A stretch of 64,000 nt of DNA from a virus: the IMG/VR virus record IMGVR_UViG_3300037091_000121, positions 3,203 through 67,202 of that record; one strand, 5' to 3'. The notes beneath the pieces are model-generated. The model was not told where the DNA came from. It made no database searches and saw only the letters and a program-made list of their open reading frames with translations. Of the stretch, positions 1,414-17,450 are shown piece by piece. Position 1 is the stretch's first letter; every line of letters begins with the position of its first letter. The translations under genes were made by a program, and so were the position numbers.

Positions 1414-3396
1414 TTAGAGCGCGATGCTCTTCCTTGCTGAATCCTCAGTCGCTGCCACCATTCCAGCATCGAACTCGGCCTTCAGTGCTGTTGCACGTTG
1501 GGTTGCTACTACTGAATCGGGAAAACACGCCGACCAGAGGTAAGCCCCATACATCACCACTAACCTATAGTATATCGAAGGAAGCTGGTCGGGTCCAGCG
1601 GTCGTAATGCTTGGTGGTGTAGCCTTCCTTCGGATCGTCAAGTTAGGGGCCTGCGACACTGCTAATGCCGAAGGCGCGGGCCTGATAACGAAGTGATTTC
1701 CGCCGTAGTGTGCCCAATAGAGCGGTTCAGCAGGCACTTCATTACGCCAGTCCTCACCTAGCCTACGCCACTGCTCAACGTCGCCCTTCTCCAGTAACCT
1801 GTTAGTTCCATACTGAACCCAGACGATCTCAATGGCATCGGCAGGCATCACGTATTCCTGAACTCCAGGAACAAGGGTTACTTCCGTGCTATCAGTGACC
1901 ACATAGTACCGGATCTGGCGATATATCTGCTGGCAACCCCAATCTAAGTAGATATCCACGACTGAATCAGGAATGACCTGGGTGTTCCGCTCATTGGTCA
2001 GCTCTCGCCAAAGGTTACGCATCGTTACCGTGGCGGCAGGTTGAACAGTAACAGGAACTCCAGTCTGACCCGCGAGGATGCTGCTAGAGTTCAGCAAGTC
2101 TGCGAAGTTCTCCTTGCAAATACTTGCTGATATCAAGGCTCCGCCGCCAGCCACAGCGTTCAGGGAGAAGTCTCCTGTGCCCGCACTTGTGAACGGGATA
2201 GCAGTAAGAGTGGTGTCATCAGCCGCTGCTGGCATATTCAGGTATCTGCCTACTCCGGTAGTGAAGAAGTCGTTACACTTGAAGGTGTTGTCAACCCAAG
2301 TCTGACCCCCAGGACCGGTAACTGTAGCAGGGGAAGTCTGGCGATATGCGATGTCGTATAAAGTGTTATTACCGAAGATGCAGCTCTCTATCGTGCTAAA
2401 CTCTCCGAAGTGAAGACTTGTCGGAGTAATATCCAGGCCATACTGGGAAGCACCCCAGAGGACACTATTTCTCAAGATCGCACCAGTGCTGTTGGCATTG
2501 ATCTGAACACCTACCGCACCGCCATCCACAACGCAGTAACTCAACCTAATTGGACTGCCACCCTCCACGCTAACACCAGCCTGCCCTGCCCCTGCGTCTA
2601 TTCGGCAAAACTCTAACAAGTTTCCGCCAGTATCCCTAATCGCCGCTACGTTCGTTCCGCCCTTTATCCAGCACCTTCGGATTATCTGCAATGCGCTGAT
2701 TTCAAGAGCGTATCCGGCTGTAGATGTAGCGTCAAAGATACAGTTCTCGATAATCTGACCCAGTGCTCCGGCTGATACCGTAGCTCCGGCAAAAGAACCC
2801 GATGTCATAAGGTTCTTGAACACAGTCCACTCAGCAGTCCAGTTCCCAACCTTAGCCAGATGGGCTATCCCTCCGTCACCACGAACCAAACTGTATCCTT
2901 CAACACGAACGTAATTCTCTTCAGCTCCATTGATACCTATATTGCTGCCGATCGTACTGGCGTATGCCGTAACCACCCCCGCAGAGTTAGTGTCCCTTAC
3001 CCAGATTATGTTTCCAGGGACCACCACCGAGAATTCATATGGTTCCAGAGATGAGACCGCTGTCCCCTTGGCTCCACCAGCTCCTCCTACGTTGGCTGTC
3101 TGTCCGGAGAAAGAACCCGTGGCTCTGTCTACTACAACCGCATTGCTGCTAGTCCTGGTGATAATCTGGTAGAGGTTGCTGTTGACGTGAATCCCGTTCC
3201 CTTGCATCGAAACAGTGAAACCGCCAGTGGCCGAAGTTATACTTGTAGTCCCTGTTCCGGCAGCATCTGTTACAGTTAAAATAGGAGTCGCTGACTGGCT
3301 AAAGTCTGTGCCTGCGAACGAAGGGCTAAATCCTACGCCGTTGGCTAGGGCTCCGTCTGGCCTAATCTCATAAACGGAATCTGCAGTCCAGGCCAT
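1414..3396 (-). CDS. Right-handed beta-helix tail/fibre domain fused to a head-tail adaptor-like C-terminal domain
   Basis: Pectin-lyase-like Gly/Asn/Ile repeats. The N-terminus is paralogous to 62427-63896 and the last ~200 aa resemble 1-651. Confidence 0.65.
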   Translation of the reverse strand: MAWTADSVYEIRPDGALANGVGFSPSFAGTDFSQSATPILTVTDAAGTGTTSITSATGGFTVSMQGNGIHVNSNLYQIITRTSSNAVVVDRATGSFSGQTANVGGAGGAKGTAVSSLEPYEFSVVVPGNIIWVRDTNSAGVVTAYASTIGSNIGINGAEENYVRVEGYSLVRGDGGIAHLAKVGNWTAEWTVFKNLMTSGSFAGATVSAGALGQIIENCIFDATSTAGYALEISALQIIRRCWIKGGTNVAAIRDTGGNLLEFCRIDAGAGQAGVSVEGGSPIRLSYCVVDGGAVGVQINANSTGAILRNSVLWGASQYGLDITPTSLHFGEFSTIESCIFGNNTLYDIAYRQTSPATVTGPGGQTWVDNTFKCNDFFTTGVGRYLNMPAAADDTTLTAIPFTSAGTGDFSLNAVAGGGALISASICKENFADLLNSSSILAGQTGVPVTVQPAATVTMRNLWRELTNERNTQVIPDSVVDIYLDWGCQQIYRQIRYYVVTDSTEVTLVPGVQEYVMPADAIEIVWVQYGTNRLLEKGDVEQWRRLGEDWRNEVPAEPLYWAHYGGNHFVIRPAPSALAVSQAPNLTIRRKATPPSITTAGPDQLPSIYYRLVVMYGAYLWSACFPDSVVATQRATALKAEFDAGMVAATEDSARKSIAL

Positions 3397-6236: not shown

Positions 6237-7604
6237 CTACAAGCGGGTCCAGCGAACTGAGTAATAGTCCAGAATCAGATCAACGTTATCAGTTCCAGAG
6301 CTGCGTTGCACCGCGAAGAACGGCTGGAAAGCCATCGCCGCCGTCAGGTTCTTCATGTTCATAGTCCCAAGGAAGATGTCAAAAACCTCAGTGTTCTTCG
6401 GGTTATTGGCATCCACATTGGTCATCCAGAAACACACGTTAGTCGGATCGCTGAAGTCAATCGTGAAGTCATAATACTGACCAGCTACCATTGCGACTGG
6501 ACCAAGCACTGGGTTGAACGCCGTGTTAACCAGCGTTCCGTCATTGGTCTCCAGCGTCACGTTCATATTACCAGCCAACTTGAACCAAGCATACTCCGAG
6601 ATGCTGGAAAGAGTGGCGTTGAAGGCCGTAGCAACCCCGAAGACAACGATATCGTTAGACCCTACCGCTGTAGTAGATCCAACCTTCAACCTCGCCTCAA
6701 AGAACGGACCGTCCCCAATGATAGGGTTTGCAACGTCCCACTTGGCGAATGCTAAATTGTCACCCCACCCTAACCCGGCAGTCGATACCCCACTAGTTGC
6801 GTCCAACTGGATCAACGCTTCGCCGTTCCGCGCTCCGTTGCCAGGGTTAGTCAGGTTGAACTTGGCAACCGGCGTTCCTACGCCAGATGAAAAACCAGAC
6901 AGGTTCCCAACAAGAGTTCCGTTGAGTCCAGTAGTGGCCGGTGCCGTAGGAGTAAACGAGACCACCAGATACGGGCCGTAGATTCCAGGAGCCGCAAATG
7001 TTCCCGTAACACTCTGGAGAAACGTGATTACATCTCCAGCAGCCACCGTAGTTCCAGCAGCCAGTGTCAAGGGATAGTTCACGTTGGCTGTCAGGTTGGC
7101 GCCACCATTAATAGCCGTTGCGGTGGTGTCGGTAGTGTTCGCATGAGCCGCCACTGACAGCAGGGTGCTGGCACCGTTGTTCTTCAAGGAGGTGACTGTG
7201 AAGTAATTCGTCACCGACTGCGTAACAACAGGCGAAACACCTTTAGGCGTGACGTATCCGAATGTTACGCCTGTAATAATACCAGCCGCAGGCGCTGTCC
7301 AGTCCGTAGTCGTCTGTGCAGCTGCCGTTACGGTCAGGGCGTTAGCACCAGGAGTGTCCGTCTGGTTATCAATCAGCAACTGCAATGACTGGGTTGGGCC
7401 ACCACCAGCAGCAGGAGGGGGGCCGATGAAGTCATTGAACTCATGGCACTGTGTTCGGTAAGTATCCCTAAAGGTAAAACCCTCAACTTCCTTACCAGCC
7501 TTCGTCCCTAGTGCGTGCTTCCGCTTGTAAGGGCCACGAACGCCAGTTCCCGAGATTAGCCTCAAGTGACCCGGCCTGTTGCCAGTTCCTGCCTGTCCAG
7601 CCAT
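6237..7604 (-). CDS. Virion structural protein (beta-rich)
   Basis: 455-aa Thr/Gly/Ala-rich ORF downstream of the capsid gene, GAGGAGG RBS. Confidence 0.6.
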   Translation of the reverse strand: MAGQAGTGNRPGHLRLISGTGVRGPYKRKHALGTKAGKEVEGFTFRDTYRTQCHEFNDFIGPPPAAGGGPTQSLQLLIDNQTDTPGANALTVTAAAQTTTDWTAPAAGIITGVTFGYVTPKGVSPVVTQSVTNYFTVTSLKNNGASTLLSVAAHANTTDTTATAINGGANLTANVNYPLTLAAGTTVAAGDVITFLQSVTGTFAAPGIYGPYLVVSFTPTAPATTGLNGTLVGNLSGFSSGVGTPVAKFNLTNPGNGARNGEALIQLDATSGVSTAGLGWGDNLAFAKWDVANPIIGDGPFFEARLKVGSTTAVGSNDIVVFGVATAFNATLSSISEYAWFKLAGNMNVTLETNDGTLVNTAFNPVLGPVAMVAGQYYDFTIDFSDPTNVCFWMTNVDANNPKNTEVFDIFLGTMNMKNLTAAMAFQPFFAVQRSSGTDNVDLILDYYSVRWTRL

Positions 7605-7642
7605 TTCTAGACCTCCTCATTCGCTCTGGGGATTGTATACCC

Positions 7643-8617
7643 CTACACTAACTTTACGTTACGCTTACTCCAATGCCTATCGCCCTTGGTGCTTGTGTCG
7701 TTGGGTAAATCGAGAAGCAGATGGCCCCACGTCTTCCCCGTAAGTATCTTCTGGATAGTTCCTCGGTCGGAACCATAAGCATCCGCGATCTGTTGGGCAC
7801 TCTCGGTTCCGATGTTGTATCGGTCCACTATCTGCCTAACCTTTGCTTCGGTTAGCATGTGCCTAACCTGACCGATCTTGCGATGCTCTCGCTTCTCGTA
7901 GGCAGACTGCCATTGGCATTTATCAGAGCAGAAACGCCTCTTCGCGTCCCTTATCTCCATTATACTTCCACAACGCTCACACGGCCTCTGATCCGTCGGC
8001 TTGGAGGCAAACCAATGATTGTAGCACTGGTCAACGCTTCGATAGCAAATACGGTTACAGTCATCTTCTCGACAGATACGGGCAGGCTTCGAAACCTTCT
8101 CCGTCTTACCTTCAACTTCTACGAACTCCCTACCAATGCAATCACCGCGCTTGTTAAGAAGCCTGATCTCGTCGTAAAGCACCTTCACGATAGGCTGATC
8201 GGCAAGAGCCCAACCTCGCTTAACTCTTCCATCGGCGTGATTACCTCGAAGCGAAAGGAACGTAACCACGATCTCTGCCTGACGCTTCTTGGTTACCAGA
8301 TACGGCAAAACTTGCGGTAGAACGTGCCTTATCTGATTACCACCCAGTTTCCACTTATAAAGGGCCTTACGACCCTCTCTGCTCTCCGCTCCTTCGTCAA
8401 TACGTCCATTACCCGTTAGTCGAACCAATTCCTCAAGTTGACCAACCCTGGTATTAGACGCATCTATTACGGCAACCACAGCTTCTCTGACATTCAATCC
8501 AAAAGGCTTTCGAAGGTGCAACGCTATGCTACCCTCGGCCTCCAGATACATCGCAACAGCCCGAGCCTCACCCACATCCATAACCTTGTCAGATACAACG
8601 TTTTCCTTGTATGCCAC
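7643..8617 (-). CDS. Free-standing LAGLIDADG-like homing endonuclease with C-terminal Cys-rich and HTH domains
   Basis: AVAMYLEAEGSI (degenerate LAGLIDADG) and LPQVLPYLVTKKRQAEI, plus CxxC clusters and an HTH tail; has its own sigma70-type promoter. Confidence 0.75.
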   Translation of the reverse strand: MAYKENVVSDKVMDVGEARAVAMYLEAEGSIALHLRKPFGLNVREAVVAVIDASNTRVGQLEELVRLTGNGRIDEGAESREGRKALYKWKLGGNQIRHVLPQVLPYLVTKKRQAEIVVTFLSLRGNHADGRVKRGWALADQPIVKVLYDEIRLLNKRGDCIGREFVEVEGKTEKVSKPARICREDDCNRICYRSVDQCYNHWFASKPTDQRPCERCGSIMEIRDAKRRFCSDKCQWQSAYEKREHRKIGQVRHMLTEAKVRQIVDRYNIGTESAQQIADAYGSDRGTIQKILTGKTWGHLLLDLPNDTSTKGDRHWSKRNVKLV

Positions 8618-8640
8618 TGTATACCCTCCCTTGTATAGAG

Positions 8641-8669
8641 AGTATACACGGATCGGCTGTATTTGTCAA
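8641..8669 (-). promoter_or_regulatory. Sigma70-type promoter for the endonuclease gene
   Basis: TTGACA-N17-TATACT on the minus strand. Confidence 0.8.
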
Positions 8670-8696
8670 GACACTATATTGTGGTATTAAACGCTC

Positions 8697-10069
8697 TCAC
8701 AACGAGCCCGCGACCCCAGTTGGGTGGGTAATCCCATGGCTTTCCCTGTAGCTACCCGTCAAAACCAAGTTGCCGGTCGCAAGGCCATCGGTTTCCCGCT
8801 GAAGAGAGATAGGCCGACGATTGAACCAGAGAACAGCAGTCTCTTTCTTATCGGCCATAAGGAACCAGCGACCATCGTTGGTCATATGGGTCATTACGAT
8901 AACCTGAAGATCGAGAGCGCGAATGGTGTTGGGGTCGTTGTCAGCAGTGAAGGGCCTCTGAATCGAGTTCACGATCCGCTGGGCATTGAACCGATCGTCG
9001 GTGCCCACCACGAGCCTGACAGGCTGAATGGCGAGCTTCCGGCCTCTCTGGTCAACCATACCCGAAGACCACTGGTTGAGGAGCGCCTCAAGGCTCTCAA
9101 TGGACAGGTCGGCACCGCTCGAAAGCTGGTTCGACCACGTTCCACCGTCAGCCCGGAAGTGGACCTGGGAGAGCAGGGGATAACCCGTCCCGTTAGCCGT
9201 ATACTGGACAGCCGTGCCGGCGTTGTTGAAGAGGTCCATAGCGTTGACCTCCTGCGTGTAAGCAGCCGCACGAGCAAGCTCTCGACCGAACTCCGGGAAC
9301 ACTCCGTAAAGTTCGTCCTCCATCGCCTCCATAGTGATACGGCACTGGAGAGCATACGTATTGTGGACATACGTGCGCTTCCACGCTTCAGCACCACTAT
9401 CCTGGGCCGCAGGCGCGCCCTGGGCCTTCAGGAAAAACTGGCCAAGACCAGCCATTACCGTCTCGTTCTCCTGGCCCTTAACGGACCCGTCGATACGGTA
9501 AATCTGCTGGAACTGCTTGACAGCCTCGAGCCCAAACCTTCGATCCCCTCGGCTCTTTATCCGAGGGCTACGAGTTTCCTCGCAGATGGGACTATCTCTT
9601 CACCTCATAGAGGTGCGGGGCACTCGTGGAGCTTTCGGCGTTTCTCGTCTACTTGCTCTAGTCTCTGAACCTTCCGAGAATTCCTTCTCGGCTTGGCTGC
9701 GGATTACCATGCCTTTCGGTTTAGGCTTCCCGCAATTCACCCCGTCTTCACTACCGCATCGCTACGGCAGGGAGCAGCTTTAATCCTACTCGTTAAAATA
9801 AACGTGCTCGCCCTTTACAAGGGTTTGGACTATCTCATCACCCGCTATGGGGTGCCGGACGCTCTAGCCTGTATTCAGGTAGTCTCTGAACCTTCCGCAA
9901 TTTATGCGGCTTGGCTGCGGATTGGGATTTCTCCGTTCCCGCAATTCATCCGGTTATCACTCCGGCCTCACGACCGAAGGGCGCCACTTTCAGGGCTACG
10001 CAGCCCTCTTTCGAGCTGATCCGCAACGTTTGCGGTTGTCATCACGCCTGAGGGAATAATCCCAGGCAT
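8697..10069 (-). CDS. Major capsid protein (gpT-like, HK97 fold), three exons: 10069-9998, 9806-9788, 9532-8697; 308 aa after splicing
   Basis: The spliced frame is open (927 nt): MPGIIPSGVMTTANVADQLERGLR|HVYFNEW|LEAVKQFQQIYRIDGS...MAGLGQF...YALQCRITMEAMEDELY. GAGG RBS before 10069. Confidence 0.85.
9533..9787 (-). ncRNA. Group I intron 2 in the capsid gene (255 nt, ORF-less)
   Basis: Core elements GAAUUGCGGGAA, AAUCCGCAGC, GUUCAGAGACUA, GAGAUAGUCC. 5' exon ends in U and intron ends in G. IGS AGCU-GCUC pairs with exon ends GAGU and GGCU. Confidence 0.88.
9807..9997 (-). ncRNA. Group I intron 1 in the capsid gene (191 nt, ORF-less)
   Basis: Same P/Q/R/S core. IGS GUG-GCGC pairs with 5' exon GCGU and 3' exon CAC; terminal G at 9807. 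Confidence 0.88.
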
Positions 10070-10130
10070 ATTGGACCTCTTTCTTCATTATCATCCTGGC
10101 CCTTGGTATGACAGCCAGGGGTTACCCCTC

Positions 10131-10159
10131 TTGACACTTCCGTCATTTCACTGTATAAT
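10131..10159 (+). promoter_or_regulatory. Consensus sigma70 promoter, probably making a leaderless mRNA
   Basis: TTGACA-N17-TATAAT, ATG 6 nt downstream, no RBS. Confidence 0.8.
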
Positions 10160-10165
10160 GCTAGT

Positions 10166-10663
10166 ATGAAAGATACGGAACTAGCTTATGCAGCAGGTAT
10201 CCTTGACGGAGAAGGATACGTCGGTATGGTCTACCGGAAGCCTGGAGCCCGTCTTGTTAGGGCTGATTACACCCTACAAACTGTTATCGGTATGACACAC
10301 GAGCCCACCATTCGATGGCTCTGCGAAACCTTCGGGTTCAACTTCTTCCGAAAGGAACCAAGGCAAGCCCATCACACCGTCGCCTTCTTGGCATCTCTTC
10401 AACACAAGAGAGCCGCTGAATTCCTTCGTCTAGTTCAGCCCTATGTTAGAACAAAGGCTGAACAGGTCTCTCTTGCGATTGAGTTCATCGACGGCCTCTG
10501 CGAGTGGCGTGATAAAGTCGGAGCCAACCGAAAGAGAATACCCGATGATGAACAAGATCGTCGCCACGGATACTATTCCAAACTCCGAGACCTCAACGGC
10601 AGGAAGCGTGGCGATCAATCAGAACCTAACTCTGAAAGAGCAGCCGACCTATATCCTAGATAA
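10166..10663 (+). CDS. Free-standing single-motif LAGLIDADG homing endonuclease
   Basis: LAYAAGILDGEGYV motif and FLRLVQPYVRTKAEQV; inserted antisense to the head operon. Confidence 0.88.
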   Translation: MKDTELAYAAGILDGEGYVGMVYRKPGARLVRADYTLQTVIGMTHEPTIRWLCETFGFNFFRKEPRQAHHTVAFLASLQHKRAAEFLRLVQPYVRTKAEQVSLAIEFIDGLCEWRDKVGANRKRIPDDEQDRRHGYYSKLRDLNGRKRGDQSEPNSERAADLYPR

Positions 10664-10672
10664 ACCCAACCA

Positions 10673-10702
10673 CAATCCCTCTGGTTATAGCCAGAGGGAT
10701 TG
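10673..10702. terminator. Hairpin between convergent genes
   Basis: CAATCCCTCTGG-N6-CCAGAGGGATTG. Confidence 0.55.
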
Positions 10703-10712
10703 TGCCACATCT

Positions 10713-15329: not shown

Positions 15330-17450
15330 TCACTGGCCCATCATACCTGGGGGTCCTCCACCCGACTTCGGAGGAGGTGGTCCTGGCGCTCCGATAGATT
15401 TACCCGGACCCGGAGAAGGCATCGCTGGAGCACCTGCAGGAGGCTGCACAGCCCCTCCACTATCTCCTCCAGGGCCTCCAAGGAGAGGCTGCCCACCACC
15501 AGAAGCCATTTCCGCCTGTTGAACCTGTTGCTGTGCTTCAACACCCTTCTTGATCGCTCCCATCAACTCTTCCCGGTGAGGATAGTTCAAAGCGCGAAGG
15601 TAGTCATCCGCCAGCATCATCTTCGCCTCAACGTTACTCTGAACCAATGGATCTCCCAGCATCGCGTTACGGATCATCACCGCAATCTGAACTCTGGTTC
15701 CCATATCAGACATCTGCTTCAACCCAGTAGGAACAAACTGAACCCGTCTTCTCAATATGTCAGGAGGGATAGACTTGAACACATTCTCATTCGCCGGCAC
15801 CGTAGAGCGAAACTTCACCTCTCCGTCAGGGCCAACCCCATACTGCGACACCAACCATCTAACCTGATCCCAAATCTTAACGTGCTGTCGAGCCACCTCT
15901 GCTACGTGGTCCTCGAACACACGCTGCAAAGAGCTGTTCACCATCTGCATCTCACCTAGTGTTGACTCGCTCTCTGCAGGCTTTCCCAAGGATATGTTAG
16001 AGGTGGCCGTCAATCGGTCGCAAATATCCTGAAGATGAAGGTGCATTTGGTAATGCTCGGCAGGAAGCGCCATGGGTGGAACCGGCTTGATGCCGCCAAG
16101 GTTCTGCACCCTAATCGGCTTCCCTAGCTGCATAACGAACCGATCAGGGAACAGTCCAGCCGTGTCATCGTAGAAGATGTTTCCATTCCAGTTAAGAGCA
16201 AGGTCCCCATGGTCGATCAACTGATTAAGAACCGCTGTATCTGCATTATGAAACGAGGAGATCAACTCTGCCACGCCCATCGCAAACATCTCGCCAGGGC
16301 GCACCATATAACGCATCATCGTATAGTAAGGCTGTCCGTGTTCATACTCAAGCCAAGACAGACGAAGTATTTTACGGGTGTCCATGTGCATGACAACAAC
16401 GGCCCACTCCATAAGTCCGTCGCCATCGAAATCCGCTTTCCAACAAAGTTCAGCCACTCTGTACTGTCGGTAGAGTCGATCATCGTCACCTCCGTAGGTT
16501 CCTCTGGCAGAATAGCTATCGGATAGCCCTTGAGCATCTAACCTCTCTCTTCGTTCCTGAGATACATCATCCGATTGAGCCGCCATCACCATCTCGACGG
16601 CATCCTCATCGTAGATACCCTGCTTCACTCCAAGAACAAGGTCCTCGCCACGGATGCTATAAATCTCACCGATACCATACGCCTCTTCAGGTTCTCTCGC
16701 CGTAGGTGGAAGGATGAACATATCCTCCCAAGGGATCACCTTCAGGCAAATGCCCTGGTAGGCGGTGACGGTCTCATGCTCCAGTTTTACTCCTTCTACC
16801 CCAGCCCACACCGCGTGGTCTGGACGACCAGTCTTGGAAAGGTGCTGTCGGGCTTTGTTCTTGTTGTAATTCACCACCACTCTAGGATGACGCTCAATCT
16901 TCTGCTCGTAGGTAGTTCTCACCAGGCAGTTCCCAGTAACAGAAATCTCCTTGTGGATCTTCCTGGCAAACCCAATCCAATCAGCAGAGTTCAGCATCGA
17001 CCACAAGCAGTCGCCAATCACATCGGAATATTGGTCGGCTTCCTTATCGTCATCCTCGGCTATGGTGGAATACGGGGGAACGTCGTCTAGGATCTGCCCA
17101 TTCAGACGGTAGGTATGGGAATCGGCGTAGATACGGGTGAATGGGGAAGGGCTGTCAGAGGAGTTATCCCATCGGTTCGCTGTTCCAGGAGGCATCGTCT
17201 CGTAGGCGTATCGCCATACCTGAGAGGCGTCTCTCCTCCTGGCGACGGTCATGTGGTATCCGTCTATCTCTTGAGCGATTCGAATAGCCAGCGCTGACCG
17301 ACTAACCATCGACTCGGGTATTCGGGTATCTATCCGCTGGAACTGGGGCTCATCCTCTTGAGGTGGCGCTTCAGGTTCTTCCTGATCTTTCTGATCTTCC
17401 TCCTCGGAATCATTGATACCCAGATCATCGGCATTGGGATTATGCAGCAT
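15330..17450 (-). CDS. Portal protein
   Basis: 706 aa with ISVTGNCLVRT, YTMMRYMVRPGEMFAMGVAE and an acidic N-/Pro-Gly C-terminal tail; lies between terminase and scaffold. Confidence 0.8.
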   Translation of the reverse strand: MLHNPNADDLGINDSEEEDQKDQEEPEAPPQEDEPQFQRIDTRIPESMVSRSALAIRIAQEIDGYHMTVARRRDASQVWRYAYETMPPGTANRWDNSSDSPSPFTRIYADSHTYRLNGQILDDVPPYSTIAEDDDKEADQYSDVIGDCLWSMLNSADWIGFARKIHKEISVTGNCLVRTTYEQKIERHPRVVVNYNKNKARQHLSKTGRPDHAVWAGVEGVKLEHETVTAYQGICLKVIPWEDMFILPPTAREPEEAYGIGEIYSIRGEDLVLGVKQGIYDEDAVEMVMAAQSDDVSQERRERLDAQGLSDSYSARGTYGGDDDRLYRQYRVAELCWKADFDGDGLMEWAVVVMHMDTRKILRLSWLEYEHGQPYYTMMRYMVRPGEMFAMGVAELISSFHNADTAVLNQLIDHGDLALNWNGNIFYDDTAGLFPDRFVMQLGKPIRVQNLGGIKPVPPMALPAEHYQMHLHLQDICDRLTATSNISLGKPAESESTLGEMQMVNSSLQRVFEDHVAEVARQHVKIWDQVRWLVSQYGVGPDGEVKFRSTVPANENVFKSIPPDILRRRVQFVPTGLKQMSDMGTRVQIAVMIRNAMLGDPLVQSNVEAKMMLADDYLRALNYPHREELMGAIKKGVEAQQQVQQAEMASGGGQPLLGGPGGDSGGAVQPPAGAPAMPSPGPGKSIGAPGPPPPKSGGGPPGMMGQ

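Follow-up and report, generated by a model that had tools for sequence, protein, structure and literature searches.

Results

Two group I introns interrupt the major capsid gene of a peat phage

We analysed a 64,000-nucleotide (nt) stretch of viral DNA, hereafter the window, which corresponds to bases 3203-67202 of the 67,202-base-pair (bp) IMG/VR virus record IMGVR_UViG_3300037091_000121 and comes from an uncultivated peat phage. The major capsid gene lies on the minus strand of the window, whose numbering is used throughout, and is split into three exons by two group I introns. Exon 1 (10069-9998, 72 nt) starts with an ATG at 10069 and comprises 24 codons, the N-terminus of which matches the homologs P0004-P0006 introduced below. 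It is preceded by a ribosome-binding motif, AGAGG (10080-10076), and by a weak promoter-like site at 10114-10087, which is a consensus match only (9 of 12 positions). Intron 1 (9997-9807, 191 nt) is inserted in phase 0 between codons 24 and 25. It is followed by a micro-exon of 19 nt (exon 2, 9806-9788), encoding HVYFNE and the first base of codon 31, and by intron 2 (9787-9533, 255 nt), which interrupts codon 31 in phase 1. Exon 3 (9532-8697, 836 nt) completes that codon and adds 277 codons and the stop. Neither intron has an open reading frame (ORF) that could be assigned: none of the four intron ORFs tested matched a PHROG family.

We scanned the window and the whole record with the Rfam covariance model for group I introns (RF00028, gathering score 50 bits). 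Only two matches exceeded the gathering score across all 67,202 bp, one at each interruption. Intron 1 scored 63.9 bits (9809-10011, E-value 6.9e-14) and intron 2 scored 89.3 bits (9568-9797, 1.6e-21), both on the minus strand and both covering model positions 1-253. A first-pass annotation of the window had proposed two ORF-less introns of 191 and 255 nt, and both the class and the lengths were reproduced. Its splice rule also holds: exons 1 and 2 end in U and introns 1 and 2 end in G. Because the bases flanking each boundary differ, a single placement of each boundary keeps both the frame and this rule.

The joined exons translate to 308 amino acids (aa), the length that the annotation had predicted, and precise removal of both introns would thus restore the reading frame of the host gene. 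Joining exon 1 directly to exon 3 reproduced the anticipated frameshift, followed by an early stop, and removal of just one intron leads to an early stop too. For unspliced RNA, the annotation had placed a TAG right after exon 1 and another right after exon 2. The second is indeed in frame. The first spans the junction at the end of exon 1 and is out of frame; translation past exon 1 would instead run through 9 further codons to a TGA within P2 of intron 1 (P, paired region). Gene callers do not see the start of the 308-aa capsid: as the annotation had noted, the ORF track misses the N-terminus, and it and the public gene calls give only 8697-9455 (252 of the 308 aa), with an internal Met start at 9455. 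On this reading frame, the full capsid would be encoded by the doubly spliced mRNA only, and unspliced, singly spliced and exon-skipped RNAs would all terminate early.

Exon 3 matches two Pfam families, Phage_capsid_4 (PF25209, 43.3 bits against a cut-off of 27, E = 7.4e-11) and Mu-like_gpT (PF10124, 31.2 bits against a cut-off of 20.1, E = 1.9e-7). The Pfam match begins at profile position 47, and therefore an N-terminal piece is missing from the ORF. Pfam also identifies an SU10-type portal gene (15330-17450) and an SU10 adaptor gene (1414-3396) on the same strand. The capsid matches 21 cultured-phage records at 27-36% identity, mostly annotated as major capsid or head protein. The family matches and this context agree with the original naming of the gene: the product is, by these matches, an HK97-fold major capsid protein of the Phage_capsid_4/Mu gpT-like kind, encoded within the head module of a podovirus-like peat phage.

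Capsid homologs are uninterrupted at both sites

A search of 5.8 billion proteins returned 63 relatives of the capsid (P-numbered). The closest full-length homologs, P0004-P0007, are 84-87% identical to the spliced product, and all four are uninterrupted and exactly 308 aa long. At the N-terminus, all four have ERGLRHVYFNE followed by a single hydrophobic residue (C, I or V) and by L or K before EAV...QF, a motif that spans both sites. The same motif is distributed over the three exons of the window: exon 1 runs to ERGLR, the micro-exon supplies HVYFNE and one base, and exon 3 contributes the last two bases of the codon and then LEAVKQF. Full-length homologs of 297-316 aa make up 45 of the 63 hits, and the shorter ones lie mostly on short contigs.

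A single uninterrupted frame runs through both sites in 157 of 160 related loci (31.6-64.8% identity), and the other three end at contig ends. When both introns were compared by blastn with 163 capsid loci, the only match was the window's own record. Since none of these loci has anything similar, the introns are rare and recent additions in this capsid family. The metagenome scan did not return the 84-87% relatives.

Four other homologs have unusual ends. The called start of P0016 (278 aa, 51% identical) falls exactly at the alignment column of intron 2. P0016 may hold an intron at the same site, the terminal G of the intron and the next two bases of the exon being readable as a GTG start; its DNA was not found in IMG/VR. 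P0035, P0058 and P0059 end prematurely near a conserved TGN motif close to the C-terminus and continue into unrelated tails. Such ends may point to a second site in the capsid family at which introns or frameshifts again interrupt the gene. A search with P0035 found relatives at only 25% identity.

A natural allele fixes the limits of intron 2

We compared the window with the sequencing runs X4, X5, X6 and X8. X5 and X6 come from two different studies, both of peat, and in both we found contigs that follow exon 3 with 13-14 differences and diverge from the window precisely after position 9532. On the gene strand, the loose letters past 9532 correspond to the 13-14 bases that end exon 2, bar one synonymous change, joined to exon 3 without a gap. 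An allele that lacks intron 2 thus occurs in nature and places the insertion at exactly 9533-9787: the limits of intron 2 are fixed to the base. The intron-bearing form was found in X8 and X4 with 0 differences. The X8 contig (380 nt) spans 9307-9686 and so bridges exon 3 into intron 2, and the X4 cover extends over 10059-10516.

The X5/X6 relative is almost identical to the window over 6660-9175 (2 differences). Over 9533-10706 the sequence is replaced by unlike sequence, and cover resumes at 10707. The replaced block comprises intron 2, exon 2, intron 1, exon 1, an upstream endonuclease-like gene and a 14-bp hairpin; its edges are the 3' splice site of intron 2 and the hairpin beyond the endonuclease gene. 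The 30 loose letters of the X5/X6 contigs, among them records of 522 and 937 nt, suggest that the relative carries a different intervening sequence, ending in G, 5 bases downstream of the intron 1 site. Searched against IMG/VR, these letters gave 0 matches.

A second, more distant relative in X8 (about 87-90% identical) matches 7378-7604, continues into unlike sequence and has no cover over 7616-8854. Position 7604 is the edge of a downstream endonuclease cassette, and therefore this cassette seems variable among relatives as well. Two core stretches of intron 1, 9826-9887 and 9911-9954, match other low-depth contigs in X5 and X4 whose flanks are unlike the window. Related group I introns therefore occur in the same peat metagenomes.

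Both introns retain the core helices of group I ribozymes

We examined the RNA anatomy of the introns helix by helix. In a script check, every pair of the core helices P1-P9 and of P7.1 proved complementary in the two introns, bar two inner peripheral stems of intron 2 with one mismatch each (P5, 2 of 3 pairs; P7.1a, 3 of 4). The P1 and P10 guide pairings proposed in the first-pass annotation could be drawn for both introns. In intron 1, the guide sequence at 9987-9981 forms a P1 of 4 bp (4/4) with a G.U pair at the splice site, and a P10 of 3 bp (3/3) with the first three bases of the micro-exon. In intron 2, the guide sequence at 9779-9772 forms a P1 of 6 bp (6/6) across the splice site and a P10 of 4 bp (4/4) with the start of exon 3. 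Each P1 contains one G.U pair. P10 lies directly 5' of the P1 strand in both cases, and these pairings are so short that chance matches are possible.

P3 (7 bp), P4 (5 bp) and P7 (5 bp) have the same length in the two introns. In intron 1, P2 has a GUGA cap, P5 only 3 bp and a GAAA cap, P8 5 bp and P9 4 bp, with GUAA contained in L9, the loop of P9. Intron 2 has a P2 of 7 bp with a GCGA cap, a short hairpin as P5, a P8 of 6 bp, a P9 of 7 bp and an extra 7-bp hairpin, P9.1, at 9567-9546. P6 and P6a are present in intron 1, and P6a is longer in intron 2. Unconstrained minimum free energy (MFE) folds display P2-P6, P7.1 and P8 in both introns, and P9 and P9.1 as well in intron 2. P7 is missing from any MFE fold because P3 and P7 cross each other. 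Compared with shuffled sequences, the folds have z-scores of -3.15 (intron 1) and -2.87 (intron 2).

Each intron has one hairpin in the interval from P7 to the 3' strand of P3, the place of P7.1; it has 4 bp in intron 1 and is longer in intron 2. P7.1/P7.2 hairpins between these two strands are a criterion for subgroup IA, the phage type. The hairpin thus suggests an IA-like, phage-typical subgroup for both introns. Within it, subgroup IA2 is described as heterogeneous (PMC11878797).

The annotation had also called the two catalytic cores near-identical, which proved too strong: 146 of 189 gap-free aligned positions are identical (77%), blastn aligns 123 nt at 71%, and full identity is confined to the core segments that are universally conserved. 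An intron in L195, one of the IMG/VR loci described below, is closer to intron 2 than intron 1 is (78.8% over 203 nt). We therefore rejected a recent tandem duplication of the introns, intron 2 being nearer to L195 than to its neighbour. Introns 1 and 2 are two members of one family.

Endonuclease-like genes flank the capsid gene

A free-standing endonuclease-like gene lies on each side of the capsid gene. The upstream gene (10166-10663, plus strand, 165 aa) is divergent from the capsid gene and resembles I-CreI-like LAGLIDADG enzymes. It is preceded by a sigma-70-type promoter at 10131-10159 (plus strand) that matches the consensus at 12 of 12 hexamer positions. Between this gene and a convergent ORF of 212 aa lies a perfect 14-bp terminator-like hairpin with a T-rich tail (10671-10704, minus strand), the hairpin that forms the outer edge of the replaced block. 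The downstream gene (8617-7643, minus strand, 324 aa) follows directly after the capsid stop and has a promoter-like site with 11 of 12 matches at 8669-8641 (minus strand). Our promoter scan found 6 sites, against 1.5 expected in shuffles. Both endonuclease genes have near-consensus promoters, a stronger match than the 9/12 site of the capsid gene.

The 165-aa ORF matches phrog_5046 (6.2e-21), and phmmer aligned its residues 6-113 with I-CreI forms in the PDB at E-values of 2e-4 to 0.02. We modelled it with AlphaFold (AF2), at a mean predicted local distance difference test (pLDDT) score of 84 and a predicted template modelling (pTM) score of 0.77. The top hits of this model in Foldseek were all I-CreI or I-MsoI (E 1.8e-8; TM-score 0.68-0.74; root-mean-square deviation 2.4-2.7 over about 145 columns). 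The acidic residue that ends the N-terminal helix in a G-D/E-G motif is catalytic in LAGLIDADG enzymes, and D14-G15-E16-G17 of the ORF is invariant in 4 of 4 relatives. The ORF is thus predicted to carry the I-CreI fold (alpha-beta-beta-alpha-beta-beta-alpha) of the single-motif LAGLIDADG type. The 324-aa ORF matches phrog_5046 over residues 26-164 (5.8e-13) and phrog_20467 (5.9e-4). We considered whether the two genes are recent duplicates and rejected this, since their products are only 23% identical across 110 residues (E 0.03). Each gene looks like an autonomous, free-standing cassette for a homing endonuclease.

A homodimeric enzyme of the I-CreI type would favour a palindrome-like site, and after the fact we noted such a site in the spliced gene. 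Centred on the micro-exon (9788-9806), 8 of 13 positions are palindromic; of 901 centres along the spliced gene, only 4, this one among them, score as high. This pseudo-palindrome is a possible homodimeric I-CreI-type site; noted post hoc and weak, it serves as a lead only.

Related introns split capsid genes in other uncultivated viruses

A 17-nt core word common to both introns occurs in more than 122 IMG/VR viral stretches. Forty of these loci (L-numbered) were scanned with Rfam, and Pfam was run on 50 of 111 distinct flanking ORFs, those of at least 100 aa with one exception; some loci may be near-duplicates. The scan gave 43 group I hits in 33 of the 40 loci. The major capsid gene is interrupted in 12 of these 33 (L166, L167, L170, L172, L174, L176, L179, L194, L196, L199, L202 and L204), and the capsids belong to the Pfam families Phage_capsid, Phage_capsid_2, Phage_capsid_4, SU10_MCP, Gp10A-like, Gp13-like and P22 coat. 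Two or three introns lie within 4 kb in 9 of the 33 loci. L202 (SU10_MCP) and L179 (Phage_capsid_4) have two introns each, the hits in L202 being 113 nt apart. Capsid introns, multi-intron genes and even near-tandem pairs are thus not rare in uncultivated phages. The present case is extreme for exon shortness and near extreme for intron size. The annotation had called 191 nt very small for the class; this is fair, but the size is not unique, since 2 of the 43 hits have Rfam spans shorter than the 203 nt of intron 1. The median span is 254 nt.

Several other loci of the survey deserve mention. At L174:1853-3027, two group I hits lie 37 nt apart in a Phage_capsid_2 capsid gene, and the second intron has an HNH endonuclease ORF; the locus is another tandem pair that encloses a very short exon. 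By comparison with a Rhizobium phage capsid protein, this micro-exon may have 18 or 30 nt, of which 18 nt breaks the terminal-G rule. Viral psbA (Photo_RC) genes hold related introns in L238, L243, L203 and L183, with three in L238 within about 4 kb, and L175 has a PhotoRC-II RNA hit. In L168, L187 and L192 the core word lies in introns that split Rpb1-like RNA polymerase, HSP70 and ubiquitin genes on viral contigs, which are probably those of giant viruses.

Discussion

A proposed splicing pathway

Taken together, these results confirm the observation made from the bare sequence and support its exon-intron interpretation. The locus is a genuine, well-delimited group I intron pair in a phage major capsid gene, an architectural variant of a known phenomenon. 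The best explanation, to which we give a probability of about 0.88, is that two ORF-less, IA-like group I introns interrupt the first 31 capsid codons and bracket a 19-nt exon; that they are spliced is what we infer from their structure and boundaries.

Each intron would excise itself by a guanosine-initiated, two-step transesterification directed by its own internal guide sequence. Following group I chemistry, guanosine would bind in P7, the RNA would be cleaved after the U of P1, P10 would align the next exon, and the exons would be ligated. For intron 1, P1 would involve the final 4 nt of exon 1 and P10 the initial 3 nt of the micro-exon; for intron 2, P1 would involve the final 4 nt of the micro-exon and P10 the initial 4 nt of exon 3. 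The micro-exon would thus serve twice, as the 3' exon of intron 1 through bases 1-3 and as the 5' exon of intron 2 through bases 16-19. Either order of splicing is possible because the two guide pairings do not overlap.

Several observations weigh against this interpretation. The guide pairings of intron 1 are short, its P5 has just 3 bp, and the Rfam alignment draws another P1 register. Its boundaries are supported by protein colinearity only. The junction codon encodes W here and C, I, V, Y or F in the homologs. The X5/X6 relative holds at least 255-299 nt of unlike sequence in the block, so that it does not represent a simple absence. Finally, none of the 12 runs that contain the sequence is recorded as RNA.

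Possible mobility of the introns

Introns without an endonuclease of their own, flanking endonuclease cassettes and a block replaced in a relative together make it most likely that the introns spread or are retained by endonuclease-driven gene conversion. The flanking enzymes would drive this conversion in trans, by 'collaborative' homing, and in the DNA of the phage itself the endonuclease's target may be disrupted by the introns. We hold such a dependence of the ORF-less introns on the flanking endonucleases to be possible, at somewhat less than even odds. One finding counts against it: the 165-aa ORF matched no Pfam family, LAGLIDADG included, at E-values up to 10.

A competing view, to which we give close to an even chance, holds that the flanking genes are unrelated to the introns: they would be ordinary intergenic cassettes that practise intron-less homing, while the introns would be left over from older invasions and no longer mobile. 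Free-standing endonuclease genes are described as common between phage structural genes (PMC3706429, PMC3984707). Introns 1 and 2 are not each other's closest relatives and so probably arrived separately. This view has to accommodate that in X5/X6 the upstream endonuclease gene and both introns are exchanged together, as one block with edges at a splice site and at the hairpin, and also the micro-exon pseudo-palindrome, weak and post hoc as it is.

The dependence on flanking endonucleases can be taken further, to a version that we consider doubtful. The micro-exon would be the centre of a pseudo-palindromic homing site for the adjacent homodimeric I-CreI-like enzyme and each intron would break one half-site, a 'double lock' that protects the phage from its own free-standing endonuclease. 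The endonuclease gene and both introns would then move as one cassette into capsid alleles without introns, the hot spot would have at least three distinct insertion points, and intron 1, at 191 nt, would be a natural self-splicing ribozyme below the size of the usual 'minimal' examples.

Autonomy of splicing

The introns may be real and removed while splicing is not autonomous or is incomplete, either because a protein cofactor of host or phage is needed or because a sizeable share of transcripts is mis-spliced, for instance by joining the 5' site of intron 1 to the 3' site of intron 2; the arrangement would then throttle or time capsid production. Several features favour this: the very short guide pairings of intron 1, the reading of one 19-nt exon by both introns, and the frameshift and early stop that follow exon skipping. 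Tandem group I introns are also reported to skip exons in phage Twort orf142 and in phage SIOphi's polymerase gene (PMC11878797). On the other side, both cores are intact, with full-length RF00028 scores, and the capsid is needed in hundreds of copies, so that a strong loss through mis-splicing should be selected against. On balance we regard this variant as unlikely, though less so than the remaining alternatives.

Decay of one or both introns is very improbable. In that case the introns would not splice, and the gene would be broken or would yield a 252-aa protein from the Met at 9455, in a defective phage; the gene calls, which see just this ORF, are what one would then expect. Exons 1 and 2 are intact and in phase, and they agree with the N-terminal motif that is most conserved in the family. 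The core helices are complementary, the sequence recurs unchanged in several runs of several studies, and most homologs are full-length. Least probable of all is an assembly artefact in which intron-like pieces of other organisms were joined into the capsid gene, which the intron 1 core matches with unlike flanks in X5 and X4 might recall: the independent X8 contig bridges exon 3 into intron 2, X4 covers 10059-10516, 100% of sampled sequence words are present in 3 runs (though these may be the source samples), and a perfect 308-aa frame joined at U|...G boundaries would not result from a chimera.

Comparison with known systems

A close precedent for the two introns in this capsid gene comes from mycobacteriophage LittleE (Pope et al. 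2013, PMC3706429), whose major capsid gene is split by a group I-type intron. As described there, this intron is about 820 nt long and has its own putative LAGLIDADG endonuclease gene, and reverse transcription PCR and N-terminal sequencing demonstrated that it is spliced; the same paper cites a capsid-gene intron in lactococcal phage Tuc2009. LittleE and the present phage have in common an interruption of the most highly expressed virion gene, a U as the last base of the exon and a G as that of the intron, a genome with many free-standing homing endonucleases, and recognition of the intron against intron-less relatives. The architecture differs: LittleE has a single intron with its endonuclease inside, whereas the window has two ORF-less introns 19 nt apart with the endonuclease genes outside.

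Several introns in one gene are known from Staphylococcus phage Twort, where orf142 contains three group I introns and shows exon skipping (Landthaler & Shub 1999, cited in PMC11878797). There too, phage-type introns share one structural gene and alternative joining skips an internal exon, but the host gene is another one, for the tail tube. Collaborative homing has been described for cyanophage S-PM2 psbA and F-CphI and for a T7-like phage's DNA polymerase gene (PMC3984707). These systems resemble the present locus in their ORF-less introns, in an adjacent free-standing endonuclease gene with its own promoter and in the presence/absence polymorphism of the block; they differ in having another enzyme family, where ours is I-CreI-like LAGLIDADG, and one intron rather than two. 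Micro-exons between organellar group I introns occur in placozoan mitochondrial cox1 (PMC5436844). That gene demonstrates that very short exons between group I introns exist and are spliced correctly, although it is mitochondrial and includes trans-splicing. Our literature search, which was limited and is not proof of absence, found no phage micro-exon between group I introns.

For size, the comparison is with minimal bacterial group I introns such as the Azoarcus tRNA-Ile intron of about 205 nt, which bears the label 'smallest self-splicing', a size and a label that our literature search did not confirm. Intron 1 shares with it a compact core and short helices with GNRA-type loops (GUGA in L2, GAAA in L5 and the GUAA contained in L9). 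The two differ in subgroup, intron 1 being apparently IA-like, and in host, a tRNA in one case and a protein-coding phage gene in the other.

Significance

What is new here is the set of flanking free-standing LAGLIDADG-type genes with near-consensus promoters, the polymorphic intron-endonuclease block, and the presence of related introns in the capsid genes of 12 of 33 loci. ORF-less introns beside free-standing LAGLIDADG cassettes, in a block that is polymorphic, form a configuration that has been proposed as a step before composite mobile introns. With 191 nt and all core helices, intron 1 may rank among the smallest group I ribozymes in nature. Two ribozymes would each have to find their splice sites on a single 19-nt exon, shorter than the footprint of a ribosome, and skipping of that exon would be lethal for the capsid message; the locus is therefore suited to the study of splice-site choice and splicing order. 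The true capsid start was missed by the gene callers here, and the same probably holds in many other uncultivated phages.

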